Below, one piece after another: positions 9,232 to 53,644 of a DNA stretch of 64,000 nucleotides. A program made the position numbers and the translations under genes. Numbering within the stretch: the first letter of the stretch is position 1; every line of letters starts with the position of its first letter. Under the pieces are notes generated by a model. That model saw only the letters and a list, made by a program, of their open reading frames with translations. It had not been told where the DNA came from and searched no databases. Source of the DNA: Mytilus edulis (taxonomy: Eukaryota); the NCBI RefSeq assembly GCF_963676685.1, contig NC_092354.1, positions 23,188,001 to 23,252,000 of the forward strand. The letters run 5' to 3'.

Positions 9232-9622
9232 TTAGGGGTTCGCCAAGGGGATAATCTCAGCCCTAACCTTTTTAAATTATTCATTAATGACCTCCCTGAA
9301 ATATTTGATAAAACTTGTGACCCAGTTCAACTTGATTCAATTCAGTTGAACTGCTTATTATATGCTGATGATGTAGTTTTGCCGTCTGAAACGGCAGAAG
9401 GCTTACAAAATAGTTTAGATAAGTTGTGTCTGTACTGTAATAAATGGGGATTAGAAATTAACCTTAAAAAACAAAAAGTTTGGTTTTCAACTGTACAGGA
9501 AAAATAAATCATTCATCTTTTAAATTAAATAATTGTCCTATTGACAAAGCTAGACATTATACATATTTAGGGATAAACTTCAGTGCCTCTGGAAGCTTTA
9601 CAGAGGCTAAACATGATTTATA
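9232..9622 (+). pseudogene. Non-LTR retrotransposon reverse-transcriptase fragment, truncated at the Maverick left end
   Basis: GVRQGDNLSPNLFKLFINDL...LLYADDVVL...YCNKWGLEINLKK, frameshift, then YTYLGINFS; ends exactly at the AGTAGT terminus. Confidence 0.85.
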
Positions 9623-9939
9623 AGTAGTGTAGTATCACTGAACACCCAAAGCCCCTTGAGTGTGGGTGCATAATTATAACCCCCCACCCCTTTTCAAATG
9701 GGGCCCTAAATATGAGGGGGTTATAAAATATTGGGGTCAAAGTTTTTTCTTTTTAAAAATAAGAGGGGGTTATAAATATTTTGAGGTGAAAGTGTAAGCA
9801 CTTTATAAATGTTCACTTTTAAACACTCTAATAATAATACACTGATGCAATGCGAACCTTCACACTCTATTTTGAATAACTGTCACTCCTTATAGATTTA
9901 CACTTAAAAGCATTAGCTACATAAACAGATGTTTTAACA
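9623..9939 (+). repeat. Left terminal inverted repeat (317 bp)
   Basis: agtagtgtagtatcactgaacacc...acagatgttttaaca is the reverse complement of 30187-30502 with about half a dozen differences. Confidence 0.95.
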
Positions 9940-13115: not shown

Positions 13116-13340
13116 TTCGCGGTCATTTTTTTGGGGGGAAAAAACAAGATAAAAAAAAATGTGTAAAAGTTAGATTCGAATAGTTTTTCCGTAAAAATAT
13201 TCATTTATTCACTTTTTATTTTTAAAATCATATAATAATAAAAAATACTTATTAAATAAATAGTAAAAAATGCATGCATCGTGTATCCGTCCTCCCTCGT
13301 TATCGCATATTGACCGCGAAATACTTATTGACCGCGAAAT
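13116..13340. promoter_or_regulatory. Repeated TGACCGCGAA(A) E2F-like sites between divergent accessory genes
   Basis: tattgaccgcgaaat at 13308-13322 and 13326-13340, plus an inverted ttcgcggtca at 13116-13125; the reverse complement TTTCGCGG fits the E2F consensus TTTSSCGS. Confidence 0.5.
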
Positions 13341-13344
13341 CAAA

Positions 13345-15248
13345 ATGGCAGGACGTCACGTAATTTTGTCATTGGGACTATTATTGATGTATATTAATGC
13401 CACCTTCGTATTGTCAAAGGAAGAGAAATCATGTGTCCGTGGCTTTCGAGTCTGCAATAAAGTGTCCGAAACCATGCTGAGATGTGGAAGGGGTGCGAGA
13501 TGCATCACAGTGTACGACCCCACCACCATTGTGATATGCCAGTCCCCATCAACAGTAGTACGGGTTGGGTCAGGGGCTGGCATAAGCATCAATGGGTGCA
13601 AAGTTGAAGGTAAGATTTATTATGAATCTCTGTCTAAATATATATATTGTATCTTTTGATGTCTTTAATCATTCCCCCCCCTTTTTTTTCCCCTTTCTGT
13701 TTATTGCATATAGACACAAAAGTATATTTATTTCTCAAAGTATCTTCGAAACCACTGTTAAATTACAACTAAATACTTAAACGTATGCCCAGAAAATTAT
13801 ACAAAAATATTTATTTTAATTTATTGTCAAATTTACCAACAAAATTCGTTTTACGAACGAGTGTATCCAACTAATAAATTTCATTTGTCATAAAAACGAT
13901 GATAGAAAATGTCCCAGTCGTAGGTAAACAATTAAAAGTTTTAACAACATCCAAGAAGTGATGACAGCTTATATCAACATCTAAATGAATTTTGAGATGA
14001 CCCCTTTCCGATAAACTTCCGAAGTGTTTAGAGGAGTGGTAAGGGATTTTTATATTTAAATTTTAATTTTTTATTCCTGATTGCAACTATACAAACAAGC
14101 TACATAAAAAAACACCTATGATTTGAATATGATACCAGCTAGATTCATAATAAAGAAGCTGTATTTATAAATTGAATATGATACAAGCCTTTATATACAT
14201 ACAAATTGTTTTGAAACGGCTCCTTGATTTTATTAGAAACATCCGGTTCGTAAAAACAAGTGGAATGTAAAGTTAATTCTTACACTTTTCTTAAAACAGT
14301 TCTGGGAAAGAAGACAGGTGTGGAGAGAGAAGAGGAGATTATTATGAAGAACACAGAAGAAAGCGCAGAGACTGGGGAGGAAGCAAAAGAAAAGGCCACA
14401 TTTGCCTTCAGGTGGTCTGTGGCAACCCCACCTCCATGTGAGGAGAAAGAGACCATCCTTGGTATGTTCATAATAAAGAAAGAATAAAAAAATGTGAAAA
14501 GCAAGAACATATACATCCCCTCATCTACAACCATGTTATAAAAAAATATATATTTCCCTCTACAATTTTATAATCATGTAGGAAAATCCTTTGTTATATG
14601 TGAGACTTTATTATAAAAATTAAGAAAGATGTAGACTTTAGAGATGAGGGTTACTTGTGTTACTACAAATGCATTGGATGTTGAAGACAAGACTACTTCA
14701 AGTTTTTACATGTTTACAGTGCCCTCCTGTTATTAAATGAATTAATGCACATCTGTAAAAGTCTCTGATCTAGAAGTAAGTCTTTTATCAGAGACATATA
14801 TATGCCTCTAACTTTATATAGATATATCAAATGTATATGAAAATGTGGTATGAGTGCCAATGAGACAACTCTCCATCAAGTTACCATTTTTATAAAAGTA
14901 AACTGTAATAGGTCAAGGTACAGCCTTCAACACGGAGCATTCGTAATCAAATATCAGAACAAAAAAAACTTATTACACATTAGAGAGTAAAACGTTCATG
15001 AGAAAAAAGTTGAAAATCATACACAGTGTTTTTATTTTTAACACATAAAACTATCGAGTTACTCTTATCATAAATATTTTTTTCCAGATAAACTCATCAG
15101 TGCAGTGGCTGGAATTACACTCACTGTGGTAACCATTCTGGTGATCAGAGTGGTCAAGAGGAGGCAAAAGGTGGCCAGGAGAAGGGTCTCACTGAGAACA
15201 CCCCACAGACCCATCATGAGGAGGTGGACCTCCACACCAAACTTGTGA
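13345..15248 (+). CDS. Predicted 3-exon type I membrane protein, 195 aa (signal peptide, 6-Cys ectodomain, acidic stalk, TM helix, basic tail)
   Basis: Exons 13345-13609, 14300-14461, 15088-15248; two phase-1 GT-AG introns give one frame. N-terminal MAGRHVILSLGLLLMYINATFVLS; TM LISAVAGITLTVVTILVIRVV followed by KRRQK. Confidence 0.75.
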
Positions 15249-17226: not shown

Positions 17227-20200
17227 ATGTTTCTCCAAACTTGTGTTTTTGTGCCAATGAAGAAGGTAGGTTATGATGATGGTTCAACTTCAAATGTCTA
17301 TCTAGGTTTAAAACCTGTATCCTATTTTCAGATGAACGACTGCCCAGTCTTAGAGGATATCATAAATTGTTTTACTTCGATTGATCAATTATTGACGTTT
17401 GCTCACGCCTATGGAATGAATGATGACCCTTACGTAATTTCCAGATTAAACCATTTAAGGAGGCAAGCAAACCCATCGCATTTTCAGTGTTCAATATGCG
17501 ACGAGGTGTCTAGTACACAAGTAAAGTACGAATTACACGCACTTGAGCACGATATAATAACGGAATTCAACATGGGCCTATTTGATTATCCACATTCTAG
17601 TTCTAACCATATGGATACTAATTCAGGAAATTCCTTTACACGGAAAACGATAAAAAGAAGTCGGAATGAAAAAAACACCGATTGTTCATACTCAACAACA
17701 AGAAACACCGACACTGATGTGCCCATGTACAAAAAATCTCGTGTATCATCCCAAAATCAAGCAATCTCTACACATCAGTTTGGGGCGGGCATTGAGAGTG
17801 AACCTGCATACACATTTAGCCAAATAAAAGAGCGAACATACGCTAAAACTGGAGCCATTGACAAGACTTTTCAGGCCAAATTTACCAGTCAATTGCACGA
17901 CAAGAAATTGTCAGACATAACAGAAGACCTACATGGTTTGTTCGACGATATCCTGGATACAGTACGTCAAGATTCAGATGCCAATAGTCTCGCTCGTGTG
18001 ATCATAGAACACAACGGCTTGACTGATCCGATTGTAGTCTCTCTACGTGAACTGAACAAAATGGACTCATCAATAGTGATGGACGAAATAAGCAAGGTGT
18101 TACAAAGTAACGAAGAACTACCTGTTGACGACAGTTGTACGATTACAGTGGGTCGAATAGATATTCCATCGGGAGGCGGGCGACTCCGTATCACCAAATT
18201 GACGGGGGAAAACAACAGTCTAATGAGAAAACGTTCTATTGTGAACATACCCAGTACGACTATGTGCATGCCGATGGCTATAGTCGTGTGTTTTCTGAAA
18301 ACATGTCGACTAGTTTCCCCCGTAGAATGGCGTCTTCTTACAGAGGGAGACTCTAGTTCCATGCCAGATAAAGTTTTGAAGCACAAATGTCACCCGCATT
18401 GGTATTATAAACACGTTGTAGAAAAGGGGAGGAAAGAATGTACTTTATTTTCTAGACGTCTTTGTGAATTGGTTGGAGTGAGTACAGAAAAACCGTGTAA
18501 TATCAATGAAATAGAGCTTTTTGAAAGACTGTTAAACATACAAATTCTTGTTATTTCAGCTAAATTAGGGAATAAATTCATTCGAGTCGGGGAAAACGAT
18601 TCACTGCGCAAAAAAGTGTTTCTCTATCTGGTTGAACAAGATGATTTCCAACATTTTACAGCTATTGTTAGTCTCACGGGCTTCTTTTCCTGCAATTATT
18701 TCTGTAGTACATGCTTAAAACCGTACAACAATAGAGACCAGCATTCGTGTGAAACAACATGTACTGTCTGCTGCAGCTCGGACTGTATAAACACGTCCAG
18801 TATAATGTCTTGTCGTACATGCAACAGGATTTGCAGATCACTGGAATGCTTTCGAAAACACGTAGAGAAAAAACAAACACGAAAAGGAGGATTATTACAT
18901 TCGGAATGCGACAAACGATATCAATGTAAAATATGCAAAAAAATACTAGTTTGGGACGATCGTTCTCCCGCCATTCACCAATGTGGGGAATGGAAATGTC
19001 CTTGCTGCAACGAATATTACACGGGAGAACACCTGTGTTATCAGAGAAGAATTACCAAGGAACTTACCGATAATGTTATGATTTTTTTCGACACCGAAAC
19101 GAAGCAGGATACATTATTACAGTGCGAAAACGGCTACCAACCTACAAATACAAGGTGTGAAAATTGTACGGGCAAAGGTAAAAAATGTGAAAAATGTAAA
19201 CTGTGTCAGACATGTAGCAAATCTTGGTGTGGTTCTAGCGAACACACAGTAAACTTTATTTGTATGCAGACGGCTTGTGACCTCTGTAAAGATAAGCCAA
19301 TACTACACAATACTAAATGTTCGTATTGTGGTGTTCGTTGTCCGCTTTGTTCTCAACGTGATAAGAAAGTTTTCAAAGGCGGACCTTGTGCTAACACTTG
19401 TGGGTTTCGAATGAAACTGTTCAAAGGTAGTACCGCAACGGCCGAATTCTGCAGAACAGTATTTTCTGACCAATATAAAAATGGGATTGTCCTCAGTCAC
19501 AACGGAAGTGGTTACGATAACTATTTTCTTCTTGAATGGTTACTCTCCAACTCCATCCGTCCAGAAATAATTTTCAACGGGAGTAAAATTATGTACATGT
19601 TAGTGCAACGTGGATTGAACATCAAGGTGTTGGACTCCTTAAACTTTCTTCCAATGAAACTTTCGAAAATTCCTAAAGCGTTTGGATTGACGGAATTGAA
19701 AAAAGGCTATTTTCCCCATTTTTTCAACAGAGAGGAAAATCAAAATTACGTTGGTTCCTACCCTCCCACCAGGTATTATGGAGCCGATTACATGAATACA
19801 TCAGACAGAGAAAACTTTTTAACTTGGCACAAGTCACGCCAAAATGAAATTTTCGACTTTGCAAAAGAAATGGAGGCGTATTGTGTTAGTGACACGACAA
19901 TTTTGAGAGAAGGTCTATTGAAATTCAGAAATCTAATGTTACAAGTCACTGGAACAGAAACCGAGATCACCGATCCCGAAACCGGACATGTAAAAATAAC
20001 GTATCCAGGCGGGGTAGATCCACTTGATTACGTTACAATAGCCAGTGTATGCATGGGAATATACAAATCGAAGTTTTTAACCGAGGACTATGACATACAA
20101 GTAACTACTCTCACTGCAGACCATGTCGAATGGAAACGTATGAAACCTACAGAAGAGGGGTTCGACGTGTGGCATGATGGTAATTGGTATTCGTCCAATA

Positions 20201-22381
20201 CCTATTTATCTGAAAACCCTCAACATAGATTCGGAAAAAGAAAATTCGTCAAGAGCCCCCTCGCACATGTACCTTCTGAGGGATATACCAGAAGATACAA
20301 TCACAGTAAAATATCGATTGCTTGGTTGGAATGGGTCAAGAAACAGAACAAGATTCATATACAACACGCTCTGAATGGAGGTGAATTCAAGATACCAGGG
20401 ACGAATTATCACACCGATGGTTACTGTCGGGAGACCAATACAGTGTACGAATTTTTAGGGTGAGTTTGTGAATGAAGTTGTGCCTTAAAATATTCTTAAA
20501 AATTTGGTCGCCGCCGCCGCCGCCCGCCCTCCGCACGCGCGCGTAATCAATTACGCGTATTCCATCATATGTTATAAGTTACGCGTTATTCATGACGCGT
20601 TCTAAGTTACGCGTAGTGCAGAACGTATTCATTTACGGGTATAAATATTTCATGGTACCGAAAACGTGTGTTAATTTCATAAAAAGTTCGGTAAAATGTT
20701 TTGCTGTTGGTGTACCATATTGCATACTCATGTGTGTCATTGCATGCTCAAACGTTCATGGTATTGTTCAATTTTCTTTTTTTTTTACAGTTGCTGTTTT
20801 CATGGTTGTCGTGTATGCTACCCAAAAGATAGATCGGAAACGAAACATCCACTTACTAAACAATCCATGGAGGAGTTATATGTTGTCACAAAAAAGAGAG
20901 AGTCAACTATTCGAGATCTTGGATACAGATATCGTCATATATGGGACCATGAATTTAGACAAGATATTGACAAAAAAGACGATCTTAAAACGTTCATTGA
21001 TAATTTGGATTTGGTGGAGAGAATTTCGGAGAGGGAAGCATTCATGGGCGGAAGATGCGACGGGACGAAAATGTACTGCAAAGCAGATATTGGAGAAAAG
21101 ATTAAATATGTAGACTTTACATCCCTGTATCCATGGACTAATAAATATTCTCGATATCCTGTTGGTCATCCCGAAATCATAACGAACGATTTCAAAGACA
21201 TACATAATTACTTTGGACTGTGTAAATTGAAAATACTGCCACCAAGAGGACTTTACCACCCTGTATTACCATATCGATGCAACAAGAAACTCACTTTTCC
21301 TCTCTGCAGGACTTGTGTAGAAGCGGAAAACAGAAGTACATGCACGTGTTCAGAGGAAGCGCGAGCATTCATCGGTACTTATGCTACACCCGAGGTGTTT
21401 TTAGCCGTTAAAAAAGGATATAAAATTATAAAGATTTATGAGATATGGCATTTCCCTGAAACTACAAAATATGACAAAGAAACGAAATCCGGGGGTCTGT
21501 TTTCAGACTATGTGCAATTGTTTCTCAAGATAAAACAGGAGAGTTCCGGATTTCCAAAAGATTGCAAAACAGAATTAGAAAAGCAAGAATACATTCGACT
21601 CTATAGAGAAAACGAAGGCATACATCTTGACTATGATAACATCAAAGAAAACCCCGGTTTGAGAAGTTTGGCGAAGTTATGTCTTAACAGTTTTTGGGGA
21701 AAATTTGGCCAGAGACTGATCCTAAAGAGGCATTCATACTTCCACGAAACGGAATGTGACAAATTCTTTCAGGTGTTGTCAGATCCGACGAAAATGGTAG
21801 AAAACTTTCACATAGTTTCGAACGATACCATACAATTAGAATGGTCACAAAACTCACTATTTCCACCTGTGGATGTAAAAACGAACATTTTCATTGCAAT
21901 ATTCACCACAATGTGGGCACGGTTAAAACTGTACTCGGTGTTAGACTTAGTCGGTAGTGAATGTTTATATTACGATACCGACAGCTGTGTGTATTTGTCT
22001 CGTAAAGACACAAAAGAGCCAACACTTGGAAATTACCTTGGCGAACTGACGTCCGAAATATCACCAGAGGAAGGTCACATTGTGGAATTTGTATGTGGAG
22101 GCCCTAAGAACTATGCATACAGAACTTTAAGTACAGAAACATGCAAGGTGAAAGGTTTTACTCTGAATTTTACGAATTCAAACATAGTGAATTTCGATGC
22201 TATTAAAAGCATGATTTCTCGTGATAGGAGTGTGCATAAAACACTGACTAACCCAAGCAAAATCACCCGCCTTGCAACGCACAGAAAAATATATAGTCGA
22301 GAGGAAAACAAAAAGTACTGTATCACATACAATAAACGAGTTTTACTAGACAATTACGACACCATTCCTTACGGATATTGA
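17227..22381 (+). CDS. polB: Protein-primed family B DNA polymerase polyprotein (~1607 aa spliced), two exons 17227-20459 and 20791-22381
   Basis: ExoI FFDTET, ExoII HNGSGYD, ExoIII YCVSD, LDSLNF, KGYFP, motif A YVDFTSLYP, motif B KLCLNSFWGKFGQ, motif C YYDTDS. Splicing restores the YEFLG|CCFHGC..C motif. The true start may be a downstream ATG (e.g. 17332). Confidence 0.95.
20460..20790 (+). other. 331-nt phase-2 spliceosomal intron in pPolB containing a CpG-rich ACGCGT array
   Basis: Donor GG|gtgagt, acceptor ttttctttttttttttacag|T; removal joins the two pPolB ORFs in frame. Confidence 0.9.
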
Positions 22382-22453: not shown

Positions 22454-22978
22454 TCAATATTTTAACCAGTGTTTCTTTTCGTTCGTATTTCGCATGCCGG
22501 GTACAACGTCACGCCTTCCTCCTCTTCTCTTAACGAACAGTCCACCTGATTGTTTGAATTGACACTTTCTTTTTCCTGTTATTAACCTTTTAGGTACATG
22601 TAGTTTTTCTAAAATGTCTTTGAACGTTTTGTCACCAATTGGCGTGTTTTCCCCAGGACACACAGAATGGCGAATGAGATCAATAATGTGTGACCCCTTA
22701 ATGCATTCTCCATTAACGACCAATTCACCTTGCCCGTTATGACTCAGCTCGTTTTGATCTTGAGCCACAATGAACTTGTAAAGTTCCACAGCACGTTTGT
22801 TCATCCTTTTAGGTATAGAATGTACTATCATTGACAGCAACGTACTATCGTTTTTTTCCCCTTCGTTGGTATCTTGATCCATTTTTTTCCCATCTGTGTC
22901 TTTCTTGTTCGTTAGGGATGTCTGTTTCCTTAAACGATCATAGCGTTCCTTTGATATCAGCATGAGTTCCTGGGCCAT
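22454..22978 (-). CDS. Conserved Maverick hypothetical protein (probable start MAQELMLISKERY)
   Basis: GELVVNGECIKGSHIIDL and PIG..F..L..LHVP motifs resemble a recurrent Polinton ORF; QSGG motif and basic C-terminus; its ATG overlaps the upstream stop (TAATG). Confidence 0.7.
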   Translation of the reverse strand: MAQELMLISKERYDRLRKQTSLTNKKDTDGKKMDQDTNEGEKNDSTLLSMIVHSIPKRMNKRAVELYKFIVAQDQNELSHNGQGELVVNGECIKGSHIIDLIRHSVCPGENTPIGDKTFKDILEKLHVPKRLITGKRKCQFKQSGGLFVKRRGGRRDVVPGMRNTNEKKHWLKY

Positions 22979-23244
22979 TACTGTTCGTTCACCAGGGGCA
23001 AAATTGGTTTGATCAAGAGTGCTATCAGAATCGGATGTCTCACCAAAATATTCCTTTTTCGCCTGTGTGCAATCGATCGGGAACACAGGGCACGAATGTT
23101 CAACTGGTAAGGTCGGAGTTTTCTTATATGATGAGGACTCATATGCAAAACACCTCTGTAAATATTCAATGCTATTTCCGATAAAATATCGATTTGCTCA
23201 TTCGTTGCAGACTGAATCAACACTACGTTGTCGGGATTCGGCAT
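22978..23244 (-). CDS. Small basic Maverick protein (core/membrane-lytic-type candidate), 88 aa
   Basis: ILSEIALNIYRG...L..Y...IRAL...RRKRNIL followed by hydrophobic ILIALLIKPIL; typical ORF beside the Polinton ATPase. Confidence 0.7.
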   Translation of the reverse strand: MPNPDNVVLIQSATNEQIDILSEIALNIYRGVLHMSPHHIRKLRPYQLNIRALCSRSIAHRRKRNILVRHPILIALLIKPILPLVNEQ

Positions 23245-23337
23245 GATACAAAAAAATAAGAAATGTACTGTATGATCTGATTCTGAGTGACATTTTCTAA
23301 CGTAATGATGTCATGTGGTAGTGTTCTCTACTTTTAT

Positions 23338-24006
23338 TCACTTTGGTGTATACACTACTGTGACGTCATCAGATGGGAAGATCGACGTTCGTAACCGATA
23401 CCTTTTATCCGTATACGGTGATAAGTCACATATGAGATATCCACCAATTGAAACAGAGCTAATAGCTTTTTCGTACGCCTCTTTGAAATAATTCACTTCA
23501 CCTGGAAAAGCCTGACTTGCAAAGGCAAGGAGTTGTTTTTTATCCCTGTTATTAGCCATCAGGACGAATATATGAATATTTAAACTTATGGATCTAAAAT
23601 GTGTTCCTTTTTCAAACAGGTTTTGTGTGATGTAAATCACAGAACAGTTTCGATGGTGCGATAGAACCGTAACCAGATGTAAAGCGTCGTCGCTTTTGCT
23701 TATTAATCTCATCATGTCATCAAGAACAATGACCGTGTGCTTCTCAGGGTTTGTCCATTCAATGAGATCACTTCGAGATGGTAACCCCTCGTGCAAGTCG
23801 AAATTGGGTATTGTATTTTCAGCTTGTTCTAAAGTAGGTGGAAACTCAGTATAACAATAGACGATTCTCACCGGAGGTATCTTGAACATGGTTGATGAAT
23901 GTTTTAGTAGTTTCATAACAAAAGTTGTTTTCCCACTTTGCGTTGCACCCGATACCATACAAGTGCATGGACTTTGGAAAGGTAGAAGCGTTGTCGACGT
24001 TTCCAT
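23338..24006 (-). CDS. FtsK/HerA (A32-like) genome packaging ATPase
   Basis: Walker A GATQSGKTT, Walker B VIVLDD, SHHRNCSVIYITQN motif, RSISLN. Confidence 0.95.
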   Translation of the reverse strand: METSTTLLPFQSPCTCMVSGATQSGKTTFVMKLLKHSSTMFKIPPVRIVYCYTEFPPTLEQAENTIPNFDLHEGLPSRSDLIEWTNPEKHTVIVLDDMMRLISKSDDALHLVTVLSHHRNCSVIYITQNLFEKGTHFRSISLNIHIFVLMANNRDKKQLLAFASQAFPGEVNYFKEAYEKAISSVSIGGYLICDLSPYTDKRYRLRTSIFPSDDVTVVYTPK

Positions 24007-24085
24007 GACGGTGTCTAAAGTATGTGTGCGAGGATAGGTTTGAGGAGAGACAATTAAATACTGTGAAAAATGACTCTATATTTTA

Positions 24086-24556
24086 TTAACAAAAACTAAA
24101 ATACGTATTAACAAAATTAAGAACAATACGGTCGTTAACATCATCATCTGAATGAAAAAAACATGCAATATCTTCTAATGAATAATTTAAACATACAATC
24201 AACATTAAAAAAGTTAAAACAAACAAACCACAGTGAGAAGAGTTCTTCGACTGCACTTGAACATTAAAACATTCGTACTTTCTCACGTTAGAGTTCAAAA
24301 AGAGATTTAATTCTTCACCATAATATTCTGGCGGGTTCCCGAAACTATCAAAAAACATCCCTTCAGATTTGTTCTTGAACACGATGCCTAACCAATGTTC
24401 TCCTGGTCGATCGGCGCTGTCGCTGTTAACGATATAGGCACTAGGGTACTGTGTCATATCATCCGTTGGTAAGCTGTTTCTAGCATACACTCCTTTCACT
24501 AAATTTTGTAAACACGGATTTGATCTGATGGCACATTCTAACTCGTATCCATTCAT
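24086..24556 (-). CDS. Adenain-like cysteine maturation protease
   Basis: GEHW (His), FFDSFG (Asp), QVQ...HCG (Gln/Cys); catalytic residues intact. Confidence 0.95.
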   Translation of the reverse strand: MNGYELECAIRSNPCLQNLVKGVYARNSLPTDDMTQYPSAYIVNSDSADRPGEHWLGIVFKNKSEGMFFDSFGNPPEYYGEELNLFLNSNVRKYECFNVQVQSKNSSHCGLFVLTFLMLIVCLNYSLEDIACFFHSDDDVNDRIVLNFVNTYFSFC

Positions 24557-25870
24557 GATTGCACGTAACGAACGTTACGTGATTTGTCTATTTCCAGAAA
24601 CGAACCAAATACTCCGAAGGCAATACAGGTAACGGCTGTAGGAAGTGCAGTACTGAATTTCATTTCAAGTCTCACATTTCTATGTTTAACCAAGTTTATA
24701 TAGTCATCTCCCAATCCGCTTGGGTCCAATTGGAAAGCATATAAGGTGTAACCCTTACCAAAATCTTCTCTGGAAATGGTAAGTCCGGCATCTTTATTTA
24801 ACTTTTCACAGGCTTCAAATAAATTAGTGTATGCCACTGCATATTGTCGATTATCTCCAAAGTCCAGTTTTAAGGGTCTTGACGGAACGCTCTCTCCATT
24901 GACATATAGACCTACGTCAGTGGCGTTGTAGTGATTAGTGATTAAAAAAGAACGGATTTGTCCCATAAGAACCGTTACCGCTATCTTGTGATATTAAACC
25001 AACCACCAGAGTACTAGGGCGAATGGTAAATAGATTGTCCCAAATGAACTCACTTGAGGATTTGTTCCTTTTGACTTCAGTACGTTGGAAATAGTAGCGT
25101 ACAGGTTTTATTTCGATCTGTTTCATATGATTAACGAGGATACCAGGATCGACTTTAATTTTACAGGCCTTGTAAACACAGTCTAATAGCTCTAACTTGT
25201 AGGCAGCACCATCTTCACCTGATATGACAAAAAACGGATTGGTAGTACGATACAACTTAATCGAGAGGTCAACACCTTCAATTAAATGATGGTCTAATGA
25301 AAATATATCTTCAAAAAGCGGTCCTTCCATTTCGAATTCTCTGCTTGCCTTGATAAAATCTCGACGAAGGACTAGACCTGTGTTTGCTCCTGATTTCCCA
25401 TCTGTAGAAGCTAAATTGCCGATATCTTTCATAAAAAGCTGTGACTGGAGTTGTGATTTCTGCTCGTCTGAACCACTGTTCAAAATCGTCTTAAGGTAAG
25501 CTTTCCAAGGGTAGTTTGAAGTGCTTACGGAGACAAGTTTATTGTTCATATACACATCGATTTGTGACCACATGGCTTGGAGTGGTAAATTAACAATACT
25601 TGTCGTATCCGTGTCATCAAAGGCACTACCATCACCTTTGACGATCTTTGCACGAACGTACAGTCTACTCCGTCTCAAATCCATGTATTCAGGACCTTGT
25701 CCAGAAATGAAAAATTCAACTGTAGAAGCATCTGATGATGTAAAGTTAGAAAGCGGTCTTGTTTCTGAATAAAAAATCCTGTCGATCGCTACTTGATTTT
25801 TAGGTTCATCGAATAAATCTAGCTCCATTGGTATGTTAATGTCTGTGTTTTCATCGTTCAAATAAGCCAT
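24553..25870 (-). pseudogene. Double-jelly-roll major capsid protein, frameshifted by a 7-bp duplication
   Basis: ELDLF...Q...RP...EFFI...YMDLRRSRLYV N-terminus and GYTLYAF/RLEMKF/LEIDKSRNV C-terminus. GTGATTA is duplicated at 24931-24944; removing one copy restores NPFFFNHYNATDVGLYVNG. Confidence 0.9.
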
Positions 25871-26340
25871 TATTTTGTCTTTACTCTATCGAAAATGGAT
25901 GGGGTTGTGTCGAAATCTAATCTGCGAACTCTGTTTTGTTTTCTCCTCTTCCCGAGAGTTTTTTTTTTCTTAGAGCTTTTCTGTGCTCTTACTCCTTTTG
26001 AGTTGACGATTGAAATGCTTTGTTTTTTTGAGTTTTTTCCTTTTATACCCTTGGACATTGAACTTGACTTTTTCCTTCCAATGTACGGAGTTTTGTCTTG
26101 CTTTTGGTGTTTTAGTTCCGATTCTGCGCGGTCCTCAATTGCAACAGTTGAAGCCACCAGTTCTACTTTAGGTTCGTTTGTCGGTAATTTATTTTTCGGA
26201 AAAACAAACCGACGTTTCCTACTGTAACGTTTCGATAAACCGCCTCCTGACTGATTGTTTACACGCTTCTTTCGATTACTCGCTTTTTTTATTGATTCTT
26301 CCCAAGCTAGTACATCGCTTACGTATGGTGAATTGAACAT
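25870..26340 (-). CDS. Lys/Arg-rich core (DNA-condensing)-like protein, 156 aa
   Basis: Highly basic, contains QSGGG, and sits between the minor and major capsid genes with TAATG overlaps on both sides. Confidence 0.7.
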   Translation of the reverse strand: MFNSPYVSDVLAWEESIKKASNRKKRVNNQSGGGLSKRYSRKRRFVFPKNKLPTNEPKVELVASTVAIEDRAESELKHQKQDKTPYIGRKKSSSMSKGIKGKNSKKQSISIVNSKGVRAQKSSKKKKTLGKRRKQNRVRRLDFDTTPSIFDRVKTK

Positions 26341-26804
26341 TACTGCAGAAACGGATACTTTTTTAAATGAAGTGTCACGCAGCAGTTCTTGTTGATGAAT
26401 GAGCTCGGTTGTCCAATTTCATCAGTTATATAGATATGGATTTGGTTCAGTCGCCCTAGACGTACAGGGACAAAATAGGGGACGCCAAATATTAAGTTTG
26501 TTTTATAGTGTTTCTGTTTGTTTACAGTATATTGCTCCGTTGTTTCTTTCTTTATGTAAACTTTTCGAAGAAGGGGTTTCTCTGAGGACCCCACAAAACT
26601 CTCTTCACAGATGTTTGAATAAACGTAGATATCCTCTATGTGCTTCGAAGTATCTTTATACGTGATACTTATTTCTGTCAACCCCACCATCCAATATCCT
26701 GTTAGATCTATTTGTCTATCCAGTTGTATTGTAAAGTTACATGCTGTGTTGTTTTCAAAAAGAAGATTTCCATCTGTTGATTTAAGAACCATGCGTATAC
26801 TCAT
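26340..26804 (-). CDS. Minor capsid protein (penton, single jelly-roll)
   Basis: LKS....F.NNT..NF...L...I.L.G.W.VGLTEI, IYVYSNI...FVG...PLLR and VTLHLK motifs typical of Polinton mCP. Confidence 0.9.
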   Translation of the reverse strand: MSIRMVLKSTDGNLLFENNTACNFTIQLDRQIDLTGYWMVGLTEISITYKDTSKHIEDIYVYSNICEESFVGSSEKPLLRKVYIKKETTEQYTVNKQKHYKTNLIFGVPYFVPVRLGRLNQIHIYITDEIGQPSSFINKNCCVTLHLKKYPFLQ

Positions 26805-26843
26805 CTTGGCACCGAATGAAGAAAAACAAAGATTTGAAACTAC

Positions 26844-28009
26844 TTATTCGTTTTGAATATCAGACATCGGTAACCAAGCGTCAAATTTTTTGGGGTAGCC
26901 AAGCCAACGTACCAAAGCTTGATTAATCCCATTCTGTTTCCGCTTTCTTAATATTTTTTCGATTTTCCATATCGTGTTTTTCTCGTCTTTTCTAACCTTC
27001 TGAAGTTCTGGATGATGGAAGGAACCAAGTATGTTTTCAGTTAACAAATCTTTGAGTAAGTAAGTGGGCAAACGATCTCGGTAATATCGACGTCGAATTT
27101 TAAAGAGCTCTTCTGTCCATTTCTGTTGATACCCTCTCTGAAACGGATGACGTTTAAATGTAATCCTGACCAGATCATTAACTCTGTATTTAAAGCTGTT
27201 GTCTGGTTTCTTTTTTCCCTTTGATGACATTGTTTGCTCATCTTTAGTTCTCTTCTTTTCATTTTTTTTTTGCTAGGGTTTCGGGCAAAATATGCACTCA
27301 GTCGAACTTCATCTGCGTTTTGTTTGTTCACTTCGGACGGGGTATATCCACCTAGTGAACGATGCGGTCTTTTATTATAACTCGCCACCATATCCTGTAT
27401 AACGTCAATGTATTTATACGTTTGTTTGTGTCTGAAATATGTGTACATGATTGTTTTAATACTTCTGATACTTCGCTCCACAACAGCTGACTTGGTTTCA
27501 TTTTGAGAATAGTATGTGTTTATCCCTTCTTTTGAAAGATAACCGCGTACATACTTATTGACAAACTCTTTACCTAAATCAGAACGGATAGAGGTTGGTC
27601 TTCGGCTTCCAGATAGAATTTTTTTTAAAGCTTTCAGCACACTTTTATGTGTTTTATCTTTCAGGCTTTCTATCCACAAATGTTTTGAGAAGACGTCAAT
27701 AACAAACAACAAATACTTCACACCTAAATTTTCACTCTGAAAGCTATCAAATTGAGCCAAATCTATTTCCCATAAACTGTCTATCGTGTTGACAACATAT
27801 CTACTTCTTCTGAACTTACGCACTGTATTTCTGGATAAACTGTACGAGTCCTGATCCTGTAACCATTGCCTTATTTTATGTCTTCCTATTTTAAATTTTC
27901 CATCTTTTTTTACTATGCGATACAGTTTATCAGGACCTGTAAATGATGCCGGATGTTTTAGATCATACCATATTTTGTGTAAGTAGTCCTCATAGTTTAA
28001 TGAACTCAT
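26844..28009 (-). CDS. int: Retroviral-like (rve) integrase with C-terminal chromodomain; 1-nt frameshift in an A10 run
   Basis: WEIDL / IRSDLGKEF / VVERSIR DDE triad. The second frame gives FKYRVNDLVRI...KWTEELF and chromodomain IEKILRKR...ALVRWLGYPKKFDAW. Frames switch at T10 (27262-27271). Confidence 0.9.
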
Positions 28010-28266
28010 TCTGACTAAAGATATTTTAAAGTAAGTTGGATATTTAAACACATTTGTTCTTCAAATGTTAATTGATTGCGGATTGTGTGTGTGTGTGAGT
28101 CATTTTTCGTTTTTTAGCCATTATTGAGAATTACTTCCAATGCGGCATTATGATATTTACTGCTATATGCATGAAAAAAATTCAGAATGATTTTGATTTC
28201 TTGTGTTTATACACAGTAAAACAAAAAACAAAAACAAAAAAATAAAATATAAATAATTGCTGTTGT

Positions 28267-28791
28267 CTATGATCTGTTCACATTGTCGGCTCTTTTCAAG
28301 GCTTGGTTAATAGTTGATCTTATTCTCAGTAGGTAATTCCATTGTCTTTTGTTTAAAAATATGCCACTTGTTATATTTCCGATGAAATGTCGAATACCTA
28401 TCCAAACTTGTTTTTGGTGGGTGCAGATAGTCACTTTATATTGTTCTGGTAAATCAAACTGTTTTAGATATCCACATGATATGTTGTTGATTCCACTGCT
28501 CTGATAATCTTCTGCTCCGTTGATCTTTTTACAGTCTGTATAGTTATAATGCGCACTATTCTTAATCATTCCACTGGTCAAAGCTAAACTTGTAGACATT
28601 AATGCCAGTAGAACAACGACTCCAGTCCATTTTATAATGTTTATATGCATGGTGTATTTTTCATATATTGACGATATATTTGAAACCACACTTGACTGAG
28701 ATGGTATTCTACCTCCCATAGAAAACGTTATAGGTGGCATCTCAGTTTTATCAACTAATCCAGTCTCACATGATACTGTTCTTGACATCAT
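28267..28791 (-). CDS. Membrane-anchored PC4-like (ssDNA-binding fold) protein, ~174 aa
   Basis: Hydrophobic WTGVVVLLALMSTSLALTSG; C-terminal FDL...YKVT.....VWIGIRHF...SGIFLNKRQWNYL matches the PC4/Sub1 pattern; TATAAAA upstream. Confidence 0.65.
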   Translation of the reverse strand: MMSRTVSCETGLVDKTEMPPITFSMGGRIPSQSSVVSNISSIYEKYTMHINIIKWTGVVVLLALMSTSLALTSGMIKNSAHYNYTDCKKINGAEDYQSSGINNISCGYLKQFDLPEQYKVTICTHQKQVWIGIRHFIGNITSGIFLNKRQWNYLLRIRSTINQALKRADNVNRS

Positions 28792-28861
28792 GTTGTTTCC
28801 CGAACGAGTAAAAGACCTAATGACAATATAACACGAAGTCAATGCTTTTATACACAGCTGT

Positions 28862-29680
28862 TTACAAAATTTCCCCGAATGGATTACAACTTGAACAGTT
28901 TAACATGCTCTCTTGTACTTGGTGATCTTCTCCTAAAATACAAGGAACAATGTTTTCCAGTTCTGGTACAACCTGTCTTACTTCAGTAAATGTTCCTTTA
29001 AGAGCTTCCCACTTATCGTATGTTAAAGAAATACCTTTCTTTGTTGGAACAACTTGGCTTGAATTGGGAATCATCCAACGCTGTCGCACGTCTACGGTTG
29101 GATATATTCTATTCACAGTAACGTACACACCTTTACCAAGATGAAATGTCATTTCGGGATTTCCGTCAACATCATCAATCATCTGACCTATAGCATCATC
29201 TATGTCACTAGCATACATTTCCAAAAGCACCCATTGTGGTAAATTCAAAGCTATTCCTTTTTTGGTTGGAATATAAGCACCTGTGGAGTTTTTCTCGTAT
29301 TTACGAATATGGATCAACAATTTATCACACCATTCGTTAGGAACAACAAATATGTCTCCACCTATAGGTAACATACATAGATTTTTGCTCACTCCTGAAG
29401 TATCAGTTATTGAACTTTTCAAAAGATTAACCAGATTTGATTTTCCCTCTAAAGTAAGAGCAGAGCAAAAACTTTCGAATGCTTGTGCACCTCTTCTCTG
29501 AATAGTAGATATCAGCTGTCTAGTTTTTGAATACGAATTCGACTGTTGTAAAATATCTTCCTTCAATTCGTCAGTAAGTATTCCAGCCTGGTATAGATGG
29601 TCTGTTACAACATCCACCGGCGTTTCTTTAACCAATTTCACGTAATTACGCTGAAGAGAATCTTTGTGTTCTTTCTGCAT
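28862..29680 (-). CDS. CARD-PC4-PC4 fusion protein with C-terminal Cys/His motif, 272 aa
   Basis: N-terminal LQRNYVKLVKE...DHLYQAGIL...RQLISTIQRRGAQAFESFCSAL is a CARD. Two IR/VR...PTKKGI.L...W..L PC4 signatures follow, then C..H..C..CNP. Confidence 0.9.
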   Translation of the reverse strand: MQKEHKDSLQRNYVKLVKETPVDVVTDHLYQAGILTDELKEDILQQSNSYSKTRQLISTIQRRGAQAFESFCSALTLEGKSNLVNLLKSSITDTSGVSKNLCMLPIGGDIFVVPNEWCDKLLIHIRKYEKNSTGAYIPTKKGIALNLPQWVLLEMYASDIDDAIGQMIDDVDGNPEMTFHLGKGVYVTVNRIYPTVDVRQRWMIPNSSQVVPTKKGISLTYDKWEALKGTFTEVRQVVPELENIVPCILGEDHQVQESMLNCSSCNPFGEIL

Positions 29681-29784
29681 GTTGTCAGTAACTTTGTTTC
29701 ACTAAAACTGATGTCGTGAACAACTTTTAACAGTGATTTTATACTATTTAAATACTGGGAGTGTCACAATGATGGTAAAAACTA

Positions 29785-30156
29785 TTATTCTAAATTTTTG
29801 GGGTTATAGTGTGTATGGTGTATATTAAATGTAATTAAGTTGTATATTTTTAATCTATGTTCTGGAGACAAAATAGGTGTAATTATCGTCTCAGTCGTGT
29901 GAATACGTCTTTTAAAACGATGGTGATCAATTGCAAACTGTATCCAATGACTTTTCCTTGCTTGTCGGTATGAAAAGGACCAAGCTATCAAGTGATGTGT
30001 TTTCTTTATTTCTTCTCCTGGTAAAAATTGAACCTTCAAATAATAAAAAAAGGTACATCATTAAAAATAACCGAAGCATGCATCAATTGAAAGATATGTT
30101 GGATTCTTTTAACATTTACTTACAGTTCTCCTTTCTTTCGAAAGTACGTTTGACAT
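29785..30156 (-). CDS. GADD34/CReP/ICP34.5/DP71L-like PP1 regulatory subunit, 2 exons, 93 aa
   Basis: Exon 1 (30156-30124) MSNVLSKERRT|gtaagt; 90-nt intron; exon 2 (30033-29785) VQF...W...QARKSHWIQFAIDHHRFKRRI...E..ITPILSPEHR, i.e. RVxF plus the PPP1R15 C-terminal signature. Confidence 0.85.
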
Positions 30157-30186
30157 TGCAACCAGATAGAGTTATCTCTTTTTGTT

Positions 30187-30502
30187 TGTTAAAACATCTG
30201 TTTATGTAGCTAATGCTTTTGAGTGTAAATCTATAAGGAGTGACAGTTATTCAAAATAGGGTGTGAAGGTTCGCATTGCATCAGTGTATTATTAGAGTGT
30301 TTAAAAGTGAACATTTATAAAGTGCTTACACTTTCACCTCAAAATATTTATAACCCCCTCTTATTTTTAAAAAGAAAAAAACTTTGACCCCAATATTTTA
30401 TAACCCCCTCATATTTATGGCCCCATTTGAAAAGGGGGTGTGGGGTTATAATTATGCACCCACACTCAAGGGGCTTTGGGTGTTCAGTGATACTACACTA
30501 CT
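30187..30502 (-). repeat. Right terminal inverted repeat (316 bp)
   Basis: tgttaaaacatctg...tgttcagtgatactacactact. Confidence 0.95.
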
Positions 30503-30835
30503 GGCAAGTAAGTTTTACAACAAAAATCTGATTTTTTTTAATGTGAAATGAAAAGCTTAGGAGTATTATCGATTTAATTGCTAATTAGTGAACAAATGGG
30601 ATACACAAGAGAGAAGAAAATCTGTAATTATTTTTGGATTTTATGGATTTCTACGTCAAGTTATCAGAAACCTTACTTCATTAGACGTAACCTTAAAGAC
30701 ATTGACAAACTACTTTACAGTATTAAGGTGTCTTTTGTTTAATCATAGTGTTCCTTGTGAAATTGAAAACAATTTAAATCACTAGGAAGCTTCTGAGTTT
30801 CGATCTGTTCTACTCTTTTATGCGTTACCATTCAT
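30503..30835 (+). pseudogene. CACTA/EnSpm-Mirage-like transposase fragment at the Maverick right flank
   Basis: VPCEIENNLNH*EASEFRSVLLFYALP resembles the conserved (W)KASEFR..LLFY motif; contains stops. Confidence 0.55.
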
Positions 30836-45802: not shown

Positions 45803-46566
45803 TGTGCTGTCTCACAAGTAAACACAGCTAACCATGGTATATCTTTATTGTTAATTGTTGTACAATTGTCATATACTGAATGCGGTGAAAAGCTACAATA
45901 TAAAAATAAAACAATACTGTAGAAATTTGTTACAGAAAAAATACCTTAATAAAAATAGCAACATGCTAAGAACATAATTAGATGAAAATGTCTGAATTAG
46001 CAATTTATATAGCACATAGCAAGTGTGCATTGTTCCAGTATCACATAGAAATATTAAAAGACAGTACAAATTCACAAAATTGTAACTGCATGTTTATATA
46101 CCTGGTGTACCATGAAAATATCTCAAAGTAGAAAAATATGGCTTATCAGTAGAAGTTACCTAAATCTACACTTTAATTACACAATTAAATGTAAATAATA
46201 AATGAAATTATTTCTAAATTTCAAATACATGTTAAAAAATATCATAATTCTCAAAAACAATCATAATATAATAACGCGGATGGCGTTCCATACATAAAAA
46301 ATCTCGCAACTTGACCCTTTGACAAAATAATCTGAAAATGCCGTTATCGCGCAGCATACAAAAACTACAATTAATATGCATTAAGAACTATTTAAATGTG
46401 CACTAAAGACATGAAAAATTTACTTACATTGTGCTTGGATTAACAGATTATTACTTTTAGATGATAGAATTAAAACGTGATAGTTTCAAGGAAGTTATCG
46501 TAATTCAATAATAAAAAAATCAAATCGGAAAAAGCTTTACAAAATTCCGGAAATCGTTTCAGCATA
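45803..46566 (-). repeat. 3' LTR
   Basis: Direct repeat of 52881-53644 with about 4 substitutions. Confidence 0.95.
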
Positions 46567-46767
46567 CTCCTCGCCTGATATTGAAAATTTCACCTTAAAC
46601 TCAACAATATCAAAAATAAAAACAAAAAAGAAACTTGCAACGTACATATTTACAAGTGTTTATAAGACATTGATTCATATTTAGAAGACTAAACATTTTT
46701 TCATTAATAATGTCAAAATATATGCAAAAATACCAAAGTTCAAAGTTCACATGTACTTTAACACTGA

Positions 46768-49700
46768 TTATTGTTCTACAAGCAGAACCACTTCACTGAT
46801 AGGACGCAAGAATGTTTTTGGGTTGCCATCTATAATCATTCTGAGTTCTACCTTTCGGACTAGTCCATCATCACTGGGCATGACTTTTGTAACAATACCC
46901 AAAGGCCAAGAATTTCGAGAGAGTTCCTTGTCACGAACGAGTACAACGTCACCTAGTGAAACATTCTTTTCTACAGAAGTCCATTTCCTTCGATTTTGTA
47001 GTGTATTGAGGTATTCAACTTTCCAACGCTTCCAGAAGATTGCAGCGAGATTTTGAACCCTTTTCCACTGTTTACGGAGAAGATCCTTTTTGTCAACAGT
47101 TTCAAAATCTATGATGTTAGATTGCAATACATTAGATTTCTGAGTGAGTAATATCAACGGTGAAAGAATAAATGGATTGTTAGGATCTGTTGATGTTTCA
47201 ACGAGTGGTCTAGAGTTTATGATATAACTAGCCTCGGCTAAGAATGTTGTGAGTACTTCATGAGTCAAACTACGAGATCCATATTCAAGCAGCATGGCAT
47301 CCAAAATACGACGAGTCACACCAATCATCCTTTCCCACACTCCTCCCATGTGTGAAGAGTGTGGTGAATTGAAGATCCATGAAATTCCATGTTTTTGTAA
47401 GAAATTCTTAATCGGTCCATTTTCCACCTCCATGACATTTATATTCATTTCATTCACGGTACCTACAAAATTTGTGCCTCTATCTGAACGAAATATTCTG
47501 ATGGGACCACGTATTGCTTGAAATCTGAGTAACGCATTAATGAATGATGAAGCTGACATCTCCTCCACGACTTCGATGTGGACGGCTCGTGTTACAAGAC
47601 ATGTGAAGAGAGCAGCCCATCGTTTACTGTTTGCTGCACCGCCTCTGGTTTTCCTTGTTAACACCTCCCACGGACCAAACATATCAACGCCGACAGACGA
47701 AAAAGGTGGTTGTTCAGGCTCAATGCGATCAACAGGTAAGTTTGACATTTTTTGACATTGGAATTCTTTCCTGAGTTTTCTGCAAGTAACACACTTGTGC
47801 AGAATGGATGAAACAAGTCTTTTGCAACCTACTACCCAGTATCCTGCTGAACGAATTCGGCCTTCAGTAAAATGGCGTCCCTGATGTTTCACATCTTCAT
47901 GGTATTTACGGACGATAAGAGTTGTAACATGATGTTTTGCAGGTAAGATGATAGGATTCTTGAAGGAAGAATAAATTTAATATGTTTCAAGCGTCCACCT
48001 ACACGTAGGAGCCCATCATTGCCGATAAATGGATCCAGTTGTACGATAGAACTGTGTTTGTTTAGAGGCTTTGAGTCACGAATATCATTTAATTCACTTT
48101 CATAAAATTGCTGCTGTACCTCTCTTAGAACAAGCTGCTCTGTGTTGTGCAGCAATTCAACACTGTCCATGTTCTTTGAGCCATCTGATCGCTTCAAATT
48201 TAAATGACGCCGAATGAATTTTCGAACTGTAGCTAAGGCAAAATTCAATCTATTCCAATCAGAGAATTTCTCAAATACACTGTTGCCAAGACCATTCGGT
48301 TTAACATTCTCAATATCAACTTTGTTCGAACGGATTTCCACATCAACATCTGGCTGAATGAGTGAGAAGTCGGAATCTTTATCCAAAGATACATTAGGTG
48401 CTTCGATTCTGCTTGGCCCATGTAGCCAGAGACTATTCTGTAAGTCTGCGGGATGAATACCTCTAGTTCCTATATCTGCAGGGTTCTTTTCAGAACGAAC
48501 ATAGAGCCATTGAGTAGGTTCGCTATAACTTCTGATCCTTGCAACACGGTTGGCTACGTAAACAAAAAAGCGTCTCTTTTCATTGTAAATATAGCCTATA
48601 AGACTACTCGACTATCACTGAAATATTTGATGTTATCAATATTGATCTGCAAGTGGTCTACTGCAATCTGAGCAATTTCAACCCCTAGCACTGCAGAACA
48701 GAGTTCTAGTCTTGGAATGGTGGTACATTTCGCTGGAGCAACCTTGGCTTTACCTAGCACGAATCCAGTAGAAGTAGAACCATCCGAATAACTAACATGA
48801 AGGTAACACACAGCTGCAATGGCAAGTTCTGACGCATCACAGTAAATAAATAGTTCCTTGTTTACAGCATTGCTAAGATTTGGCACGATAATACGGGGTA
48901 TGCGCAAATCCTCTAAGTCAGGTAAGTTTTGACTCCATTTATTCCATTCAGTCAACAAATGTTCAGGCAATGGATCATCCCAATCAAATGTTGAAGACAC
49001 TATTTTTCGAAGTATGATTTTGCCTTGCACAGTTATTGGGGAGATAAATCCCATTGGGTCGTAAAGACTATTAACAACTGAGAGTATGCCTCTACGCGTT
49101 GCTGATTTAGTTTCATTAGAGATGCTGAATTTAAAGGTATCGGATCCTAAATCCCACAGCAGACCTAGGCTACGCTGAGTAGGTGAGTCTTTCTCAAAGT
49201 CCATATCCACGAGTCCCTTTGCTAAGTCTCCGGGTTCCAACGCATTTATAACAACTTTGCTATTGGACGCAAATTTATGAAGTCGCAGATTTCCATGCAT
49301 TTTCATGGCTTCTTGGGTTTTAAGAATCAAGTCTATAGCATCTTGGCTTGACGGGCAATACTTCAAGCCATCATCAACATAGAAATCATTGTTTATAAAA
49401 TTCTTCACATCGTCACCATGAGATTCAGTGGCTAATTCTCCTATTCGACGTAATCCATACATAGCTATTGAGGGCGAAGGTCGATTCCCAAAGACATGTA
49501 CACGCATACGGTAAGTAACAAGTGGGTTTTCAATCACATTATCTTTGTGCCATAGAAATCTGAGGAAATCTCTATGTTCTTCCTGTACCAGGAACGAATG
49601 GAACATTTGCTGGATATCAGCGACTACTCCTACCATCTCTTTTCTAAATCGAATAAGTATTCCGAGAAGACTGTTGATGAGATCAGGACCTTGAAGCAGC

Positions 49701-52700: not shown

Positions 52701-52839
52701 ATAACATGAAACTTGACACTTTTGCCCTTTTTATGTGAGTGTCCTTTTGTTCCTGGTGGAACAGAGTTCCCTTTTCAGTCATCTGACTAGTTCGTTGATC
52801 TGTGTCTTCTTCACGACTGTCTGTAAACATGGCGGACAT
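46768..52839 (-). pseudogene. BEL/Pao gag-pol polyprotein split into four ORFs by frameshifts
   Basis: Gag Zn knuckles CLRC..H....C/CDIC...H....H; protease YAMLDDHS; RT FYVDDGL; RNase H YCDASE...IPRLEL; integrase GVDMFGP/SDRGTNF/GGVWERMI. Confidence 0.92.
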
Positions 52840-52880
52840 GTACCAGTGTGTTGTAAGGATCCTTCAAGTAATCTTTTCAC

Positions 52881-53644
52881 TGTGCTGTCTCACAAGTAAA
52901 CACAGCTAACCATGGTATATCTTTATTGTTAATTGTTGTACAATTGTCATATACTGAATGCGGTGAAAAGCTACAATATAAAAATAAAACAATACTGTAG
53001 AAATTTGTTACAGAAAAAATACCTTAATAAAAATAGCAACATGCTAAGAACATAATTAGATGAAAATGTCTGATTTAGCAATTTATATAGCACATAGCAA
53101 GTGTGCATTGTTCCAGTATCACATAGAAATATTAAAAGACAGTACAAATTCACAAAATTGTAACTGCATGTTTATATACCTGGTGTACCATGAAAATATC
53201 TCAAAGTAGAAAAATATGGCTTATCAGTAGAAATTACCTAAATCTACACTTTAATTACACAATTAAATGTAAATAATAAATGAAATTATTTCTAAATTTC
53301 AAATACATGTTAAAAAATATCATAATTCTCAAAAACAATCATAATATGATAACGCGGATGGCGTTCCATACATAAAAAATCTCGCAACTTGACCCTTTGA
53401 CAAAATAATCTGAAAATGCCGTTATCGCGCAGCATACAAAAACTACAATTAATATGCATTAAGAACTATTTAAATGTGCACTAAAGACATGAAAAATTTA
53501 CTTACATTGTGCTTGGATTAACAGATTATTACTTTTAGATGATAGAATTAAAACGTGATAGTTTCAAGGAAGTTATCGTAATTCAATAATAAAAAAATCA
53601 AATCGGAAAAAGCTTTACAAAATTCCGGAAATCGTTCCAGCATA
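52881..53644 (-). repeat. 5' LTR
   Basis: Direct repeat of 45803-46566. Confidence 0.95.

Follow-up and report, generated by a model that had tools for sequence, protein, structure and literature searches.

The window, a stretch of 64,000 nt of the Mytilus edulis genome, contains a 20.9-kb Polinton/Maverick element, at the right end of which lies a small two-exon gene with the C-terminal core of PPP1R15 (GADD34) in its second exon (Table 1). The proteins closest to those of the element carry Mytilus mussel names.

Table 1. Features of the Polinton/Maverick element and of its PPP1R15-like gene (positions in the window)
Feature	Positions	Strand	Remarks
Left TIR	9623..9939	.	6-bp flanks of the element differ; no target-site duplication
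Protein-primed DNA polymerase B (pPolB)	17227..22381	+	GT-AG intron-like gap at 20460-20790
Core module	22454..28051	-	Integrase + chromodomain (two frames), putative minor capsid, major capsid (two frames), protease, packaging ATPase
CARD + two PC4 domains gene	28862..29680	-	Domains by Pfam; same position in sister elements
Exon 2	29785..30033	-	PPP1R15/GADD34 C-terminal core, 82 codons, from V-x-F to stop
Putative eIF2-alpha/actin-binding motif region	29902..29958	-	R26, W30, F40 and I44 of exon 2
Intron	30034..30123	-	90 nt, phase 0, GT-AG, GTAAGT donor, AAG acceptor; inside the RVxF motif
Exon 1	30124..30156	-	ATG + 10 codons; gives the start codon and the basic residue of RVxF
Right TIR	30187..30502	.	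AGTAGT end
TATA-like octamer	30201..30208	-	Within the TIR, some 50 nt upstream of the ATG; picked by eye; putative promoter element

Differences were identified between the window element and its sister copies. The Pfam cut-offs were exceeded by DNA_pol_B_2, rve and Peptidase_C5, and a chromodomain was also found by Pfam; the ATPase and capsid matches were weak (DJR match of the capsid, E 0.0095). The capsid names used for the window element lean in part on the gene order that we take to be that of Polintons. The sister copy on contig C7 encodes the capsid and the integrase/chromodomain each in one frame, versus two in the window. The 6-bp target-site duplication is perfect in four of six copies (those on C14, C10, C8 and C3) and absent in the window and C5 copies. 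A decayed frame in the left flank (9300-9622), which we take to be reverse-transcriptase-like, does not continue beyond the right TIR, and this interruption together with the missing duplication suggests a rearranged insertion; the window element is probably rearranged. The pPolB gap is common to the window, C10 and C7 copies and is shifted by one base between subfamilies (pPolB gap coordinates in the C10 copy, G000:C10:45478909-45479514). The C10 and C7 copies, unlike the window element, contain a second pPolB gap, and thus introns come or go in this lineage. The CARD-PC4 gene is 69-75% identical in intact sister elements; its product may be a second host-interaction factor, possibly a death-signalling decoy joined to a single-stranded-DNA-binding module.

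The right end of the window element has 19 DNA matches, 16 of them on contig C11. Of the 19, only the window's own runs into the gene and the others stop at the TIR edge, a pattern pointing to rearrangement within a single chromosome or to local spread there. Elements of this lineage also occur as near-whole duplicates, palindromic or in tandem, at G000:C2080:13087-30056, G000:C7:19.275-19.294 Mb and G000:C7:33.477-33.501 Mb (duplicate stretches of 8 kb at 99.8% and 11.8 kb at 100%), and are either replication intermediates or assembly artefacts. A location of the gene inside the TIR of sister elements was ruled out, the C2080 and C7 inverted pairs being whole-element duplicates.

The PPP1R15-like gene is overlooked by ORF callers. 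The initial annotation had proposed that the call, which starts at a TTG (30039), misses an upstream ATG exon, and this proved correct: the ATG at 30156 opens 11 codons that run into GTAAGT. Translation from the TTG was rejected because the equivalent position is TAG in 12 of 15 element copies. The ATG lies 30 nt from the inner edge (30187) of the right TIR, at the distance first estimated. A pyrimidine tract precedes the AAG acceptor (30034), and exon 2 opens at the V of V-Q-F. The layout of exon 1 and intron is beyond chance: when the 153 nt separating the TIR from exon 2 were put through 2000 dinucleotide shuffles, an ATG, an in-frame GTRAGT and a terminal AG came together only five times. 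After predicted splicing the RVxF motif reads R-T|V-Q-F in the window copy and K-T|V-R-F or K-R|V-R-F in sister copies. The further idea that splicing creates this motif holds in part: R-T|V-Q-F does span the junction, but the unspliced frame of the window copy already reads K-V-Q-F and has no ATG before the upstream stop, and therefore splicing is needed for the start codon, not for the motif. A public model named PPP1R15B/DP71L (P0002, 98% identical over exon 2) joins the element exon to an unrelated upstream part of 175 aa, and is probably a mis-annotation using the same acceptor. Near-length protein searches gave no match with a single-protein query and, when based on an alignment, three proteins, none of which begins with exon 1.

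The genome yielded 16 matches to the gene, 15 borne by elements and one in the host PPP1R15 gene. Neighbouring Polinton genes in the same order assign 13 of the 15 to elements; of the other two, L008 is assigned by an ATPase 6 kb away, and the degraded L016 (G000:C3:102419007-102434763) by its inverted repeats, which have a target-site duplication, and the remains of a pPolB gene. In L016 the start codon, exon 1 and donor fall within the 510-bp inverted repeat and occur at both ends. No copy among the 15 lacks the 11-codon exon 1 or the GT donor, and AG directly precedes the V-x-F position in 14 of them. The acceptor is an in-frame TAG in 12 copies, so that splicing is obligatory for reading these, and the intron (90, 93, 118, 122, 312, 314, 321 or 353 nt) has a length that is not a multiple of three in 7 of the 15. 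Exon 2 is open in ten copies and broken by stops or frameshifts in five. Purifying selection acts on both exons: exon 1 has pN of 0.04-0.17 versus pS of 0.29-0.56 (three pairs of intact subfamilies), and exon 2 has pN of 0.09-0.23 versus pS of 0.30-0.79 (between intact subfamilies). The ATPase, a core gene, is under tighter constraint (pN 0.05-0.10, pS 0.27-0.67) than the PPP1R15-like gene, which is nonetheless constrained. Between element subfamilies, synonymous sites are close to saturated. The universal first exon and donor, the free intron length and the constraint on both exons uphold the two-exon structure first proposed, and the gene is almost certainly a real spliced gene in this lineage, to judge from its conservation.

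The gene is fixed in one Polinton lineage, between the TIR and the CARD-PC4 gene. Among 150 ATPase matches scored (three of which are degraded copies already counted, the ATPase and gene counts being lower bounds), 13 are 79-100% identical to the window ATPase, and 11 of these elements carry a PPP1R15-like gene, the other two ending before its position is reached; the 134 ATPase matches at ≤45% identity have no PPP1R15-like match alongside.

The GADD34/ICP34.5-like character suggested for the product by the initial annotation is supported at the level of the core domain: exon 2 alone passes the Pfam cut-off for PF10488 (PP1c_bdg; 28.5 bits versus 26.1, E 1.5e-6), and all four of the PDB sequences that it matches are PPP1R15A/B or DP71L (PPP1R15B, E 1.1e-6; PPP1R15A, 3.9e-4; DP71L, 3.4e-3). 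The product is probably a PP1/eIF2-alpha adaptor.

Outside the elements there is a single PPP1R15 gene in the mussel genome (G000:C7:23565062-23562487), consisting of a 561-codon exon ending in K-K, a 680-nt GT-AG intron of phase 0, and a 70-codon exon starting at V-H-F. Its intron point, KK|VHF, is at the same place and in the same phase as that of the element gene. The public model P0003 equals both parts of the host gene, and a 630-aa relative on a contig of 2,441 nt, too short for the intron, has the joined KK|VHF. Element exon 2 is 48% identical to the mussel host core over 68 aa.

The host intron was also traced in other animals. Among 153 profile hits, Q (CAG-like) stands right before V-x-F in 12 of 53 short proteins versus 4 of 100 long ones. 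From the V on, the short ORF P0021 matches the Tenebrio model P0030 at 50 of 50 residues, and just before the V the two differ; in P0021 an insect acceptor at the corresponding position may have been read through. In hamster Ppp1r15b the KVxF motif is described as lying across the boundary between exons 1 and 2 (PMC5429092), and the core is described as lying on a separate exon in both mammalian isoforms (PMC4394352), statements that in the parts of these sources consulted give the position of the intron and not its phase. Since the mussel host gene, the beetle pair and the mammalian statements agree, the PPP1R15 intron is likely to be old in bilaterians. Thus the host intron that the initial annotation had looked for, at the same phase-0 place before VxF, exists in the mussel, and the beetle pair and the hamster position fit it.

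From the shared position and phase and the age of the host intron it follows that capture from unspliced sequence is likely, and the element intron was probably inherited from an unspliced host sequence. Of the earlier suggestion that the gene was taken from genomic DNA, the unspliced source is favoured by the shared position; DNA as its form is left less certain, as unspliced RNA or a parallel gain would also fit. We consider it reasonably likely that a Polinton lineage carries a two-exon mini-PPP1R15 captured from unspliced host DNA, which acts as a small PP1 adaptor that keeps translation running. An ancestral element would have taken the last exon of the host gene together with its splice acceptor and without the N-terminal exon of about 560 codons, and an 11-codon leader exon, kept or gained, would have restored a basic residue before V-x-F. 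Transcription would start from near the element end, and the host spliceosome would join the exons into a protein of about 90 aa without the N-terminal region. This product would dock PP1 via RVxF and a conserved Arg and use the W...RF..RI segment to bind eIF2-alpha, with G-actin as a probable partner; dephosphorylation of eIF2-alpha-P would then reverse the stress-kinase shut-off during element replication, as DP71L and ICP34.5 do.

A gene of the same function might instead have been captured as a spliced (retro) copy and have gained its intron later, in parallel, at a K|V proto-splice site, as LINE-1 capture of spliced genes has been shown for poxviruses (PMC13712846). The host junction, AAG|GT, is such a site, and pPolB of this lineage has GT-AG intron-like gaps, one of them polymorphic, so that parallel intron gain is possible. 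The element introns are also no more similar to the host intron than shuffled sequences are (as high a score was reached by 91-272 of 300 shuffles; none of four comparisons was better than the shuffles), as is also expected of an old capture because synonymous sites of the elements are near saturation, and exon 1 bears no resemblance to the end of the host N-terminal exon beyond basic residues. An 84-aa, element-like protein, P0008, has a joined K-T|I-H-F and may be intronless or a transcript. Such a gain, however, must have landed precisely on the single ancestral intron site of the host, and in its phase, when each copy offers 2-5 other AG|G sites among the roughly 240 positions of exon 2, and it is right at the acceptor that homology to the host sets in, which is what joint capture of exon and acceptor predicts. 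Capture as a spliced copy is therefore considered unlikely, and inheritance of the intron from unspliced host sequence is preferred.

The function of the product was considered in terms of the eIF2-alpha motif of Rojas (as quoted in PMC5346070). The gene could have been selected without any rescue of translation, as a PP1/eIF2-alpha decoy or to retarget PP1 to another substrate (for example viral or nuclear), given that element copies deviate at one or two of the ten constrained motif positions (the window copy at two, matching 8/10; L002 and L005 matching 9/10) and that a DP71L mutant still binding PP1 can increase eIF2-alpha-P through sequestration, according to PMC5346070. This is distinctly improbable: the mussel host gene itself scores 9/10 and departs from the motif at the same [RG] position as the element copies, and R26, W30, F40 and I44 of exon 2, unchanged in all six aligned sequences, have the spacing (4/10/4) of R658, W662, F672 and I676 of PPP1R15B, which PMC4394352 names as required for the actin-dependent, substrate-specific activity. 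According to the same source, the C-terminal core by itself is enough for attenuation of the integrated stress response, and the N-terminal region of mammalian PPP1R15 governs membrane binding, localisation and turnover.

For the phylogeny of the gene, each sequence was trimmed to the 70 residues that begin at V-x-F; hits lacking the motif were excluded, as were long ones ranking below P0070. In a 24-row tree of 70 columns the element genes did not fall beside that of the mussel (3 of 21 branches starred), and a single clade of elements and mussel genes was neither shown nor rejected by the AU test (p 0.416). A quick 98-row tree put the element group among many short proteins of unstated origin (5 of 94 branches starred). 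Three short ENA/Logan proteins group with the element genes in the trees, P0008, P0026 and P0009 (which has an acceptor-like Q before V-H-F), and are likely to be relatives from other hosts. The low-support position among short proteins would fit a gene that came not directly from an animal chromosome but through a different DNA virus, one already equipped with a PPP1R15 mimic containing the intron; this origin is improbable, as long-branch attraction can account for the placement, the IMG/VR scans with the gene revealed no donor virus (0 loci), and the intron would still trace to host DNA. An IMG/VR scan with the capsid also gave 0 loci, and a metagenome scan gave one weak, unrelated-looking locus (L036), which was discarded.

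The spliced reads that the initial annotation predicted (30124^30033) did not appear: no splice joint was present in any of the four runs mapped on 28100-30520 (of 24 listed; window copy only), and none of the listed runs carrying the sequence was registered as RNA. Contigs from two runs that are RNA only by guess, X1 (29380-30141) and X3 (29803-30159), cross the intron unspliced at a flat depth of 3-9, and in the 6% of the raw RNA run X21 that was examined, no read falls on the gene. The missing joints fit DNA carry-over, a silent window copy or poor use of the AAG acceptor, and the window copy itself, the acceptor of which is weaker, may be silent; splicing rests on conservation, not on reads. 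That the gene is a passenger host exon, unspliced or unexpressed, with exon 1 as a chance ORF, as the lack of a spliced read, the unspliced contigs and the five broken copies might suggest, is scarcely credible when exon 1 and its donor are conserved across subfamilies near synonymous saturation and pN is far below pS in both exons while intron length is free.

The initial annotation also assigned the promoter to the TIR. A TATA-like stretch was recognized by eye 40-55 nt before the ATG in three subfamilies, inside the TIR in the window copy and in unique sequence outside the TIR in two sister subfamilies. The assignment can hold for the window copy, for which the chances are about even that the TIR is the promoter, but it is not general: a role of the TIR as the general promoter was rejected on account of five of six sister copies, which have their ATG 136-236 nt inward of the TIR edge and the TATA-like stretch outside the TIR. 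The sixth sister copy is degraded, and there exon 1 is itself part of the terminal repeat.

Herpes-, asfar-, pox- and granuloviruses are known to encode mimics of PPP1R15 (PMC5346070, PMC13712846, PMC4394352). ASFV DP71L (short form of 70-72 aa), HSV ICP34.5, canarypox CNPV231 and the granulovirus homologue are described as having the same pared-down C-terminal core, with RVxF and the eIF2-alpha motif; in contrast to these, the gene described here is carried by an integrating Polinton of about 21 kb and has retained a spliceosomal intron where the host gene has its own. The parts of the three sources consulted mention no intron in viral mimic genes. The host proteins GADD34 (PPP1R15A) and CReP (PPP1R15B) have the same core, and in the mussel host gene the same phase-0 intron precedes V-x-F, but the element has an 11-codon leader instead of the 561-codon exon, its intron sequence is unrelated, and the element genes are not demonstrably sister to the mussel gene. 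To our knowledge, other viral PPP1R15 mimic genes are intronless. The gene would represent a viral strategy that is already known, here in a new carrier, and its intron likely testifies to capture from host DNA.

Among related elements, the vertebrate Mavericks (PMC8097293) and adintoviruses (PMC8502044) are described as having the same pPolB, integrase, ATPase, protease and capsid genes and AGTAGT-type ends. Intact vertebrate Mavericks are described as lacking introns in their genes (PMC8097293), whereas the mussel lineage has intron-like gaps in pPolB as well. Nematode Mavericks likewise have host-type, intron-containing genes between the TIR and the integrase (wasp proteases, krma kinases; 10.1101/2022.07.12.499685). 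That cargo is reported there as exchangeable and situated in a poorly conserved region, unlike the mussel gene, which is fixed in one lineage, consists of a minimal domain, has long been kept by purifying selection and is similar to a counter-defence factor of viruses. In the openly accessible literature searched, no PPP1R15 gene was found to be reported from Polintons. The word "phosphatase" is absent from the main texts of PMC8502044, PMC11296320, PMC11131425 and 10.1101/2025.04.19.649669, the accessible parts of PMC10743859, 10.1101/2025.02.28.640897 and PMC11957031 contain nothing on PPP1R15 in Polintons, and in what was available of PMC5704228 "protein phosphatase 1" occurs once beside polinton terms.

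The gene bears on the question of whether animal Polintons are transposons or real viruses, the virions of which had not yet been observed according to PMC8097293. An eIF2-alpha phosphatase adaptor is the type of gene taken up by viruses that need bulk translation, and a selected copy is therefore functional evidence for a virus-like phase; it would imply that translational shut-off is a response of bivalve cells to these elements. An intron at the ancestral host position would be a rare trace of capture by a DNA route, as opposed to the LINE-1 mRNA route shown for poxviruses. Tentatively, and with somewhat less than even confidence, the lineage may be a true nuclear virus that counters the integrated stress response, with a PPP1R15 exon and acceptor from a host chromosome and a new leader completing RVxF, the gene forming an anti-shut-off/anti-death module with the CARD-fusion gene. 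If so, intron-containing core genes would show reliance on the host spliceosome.

The left accessory region of the element (7 kb) contains short ORFs or exon-like stretches (13270-13659 and 14260-15240, + strand), one of which is cysteine-rich with a hydrophobic stretch and ends at GTAAG. The two that were searched had no Pfam match; these stretches may be further spliced accessory genes. Elsewhere in the window, identical direct repeats of 300 nt, 7,078 nt apart, surround long minus-strand ORFs (1174 aa) at 45803-53180, which is probably an intact LTR retrotransposon.
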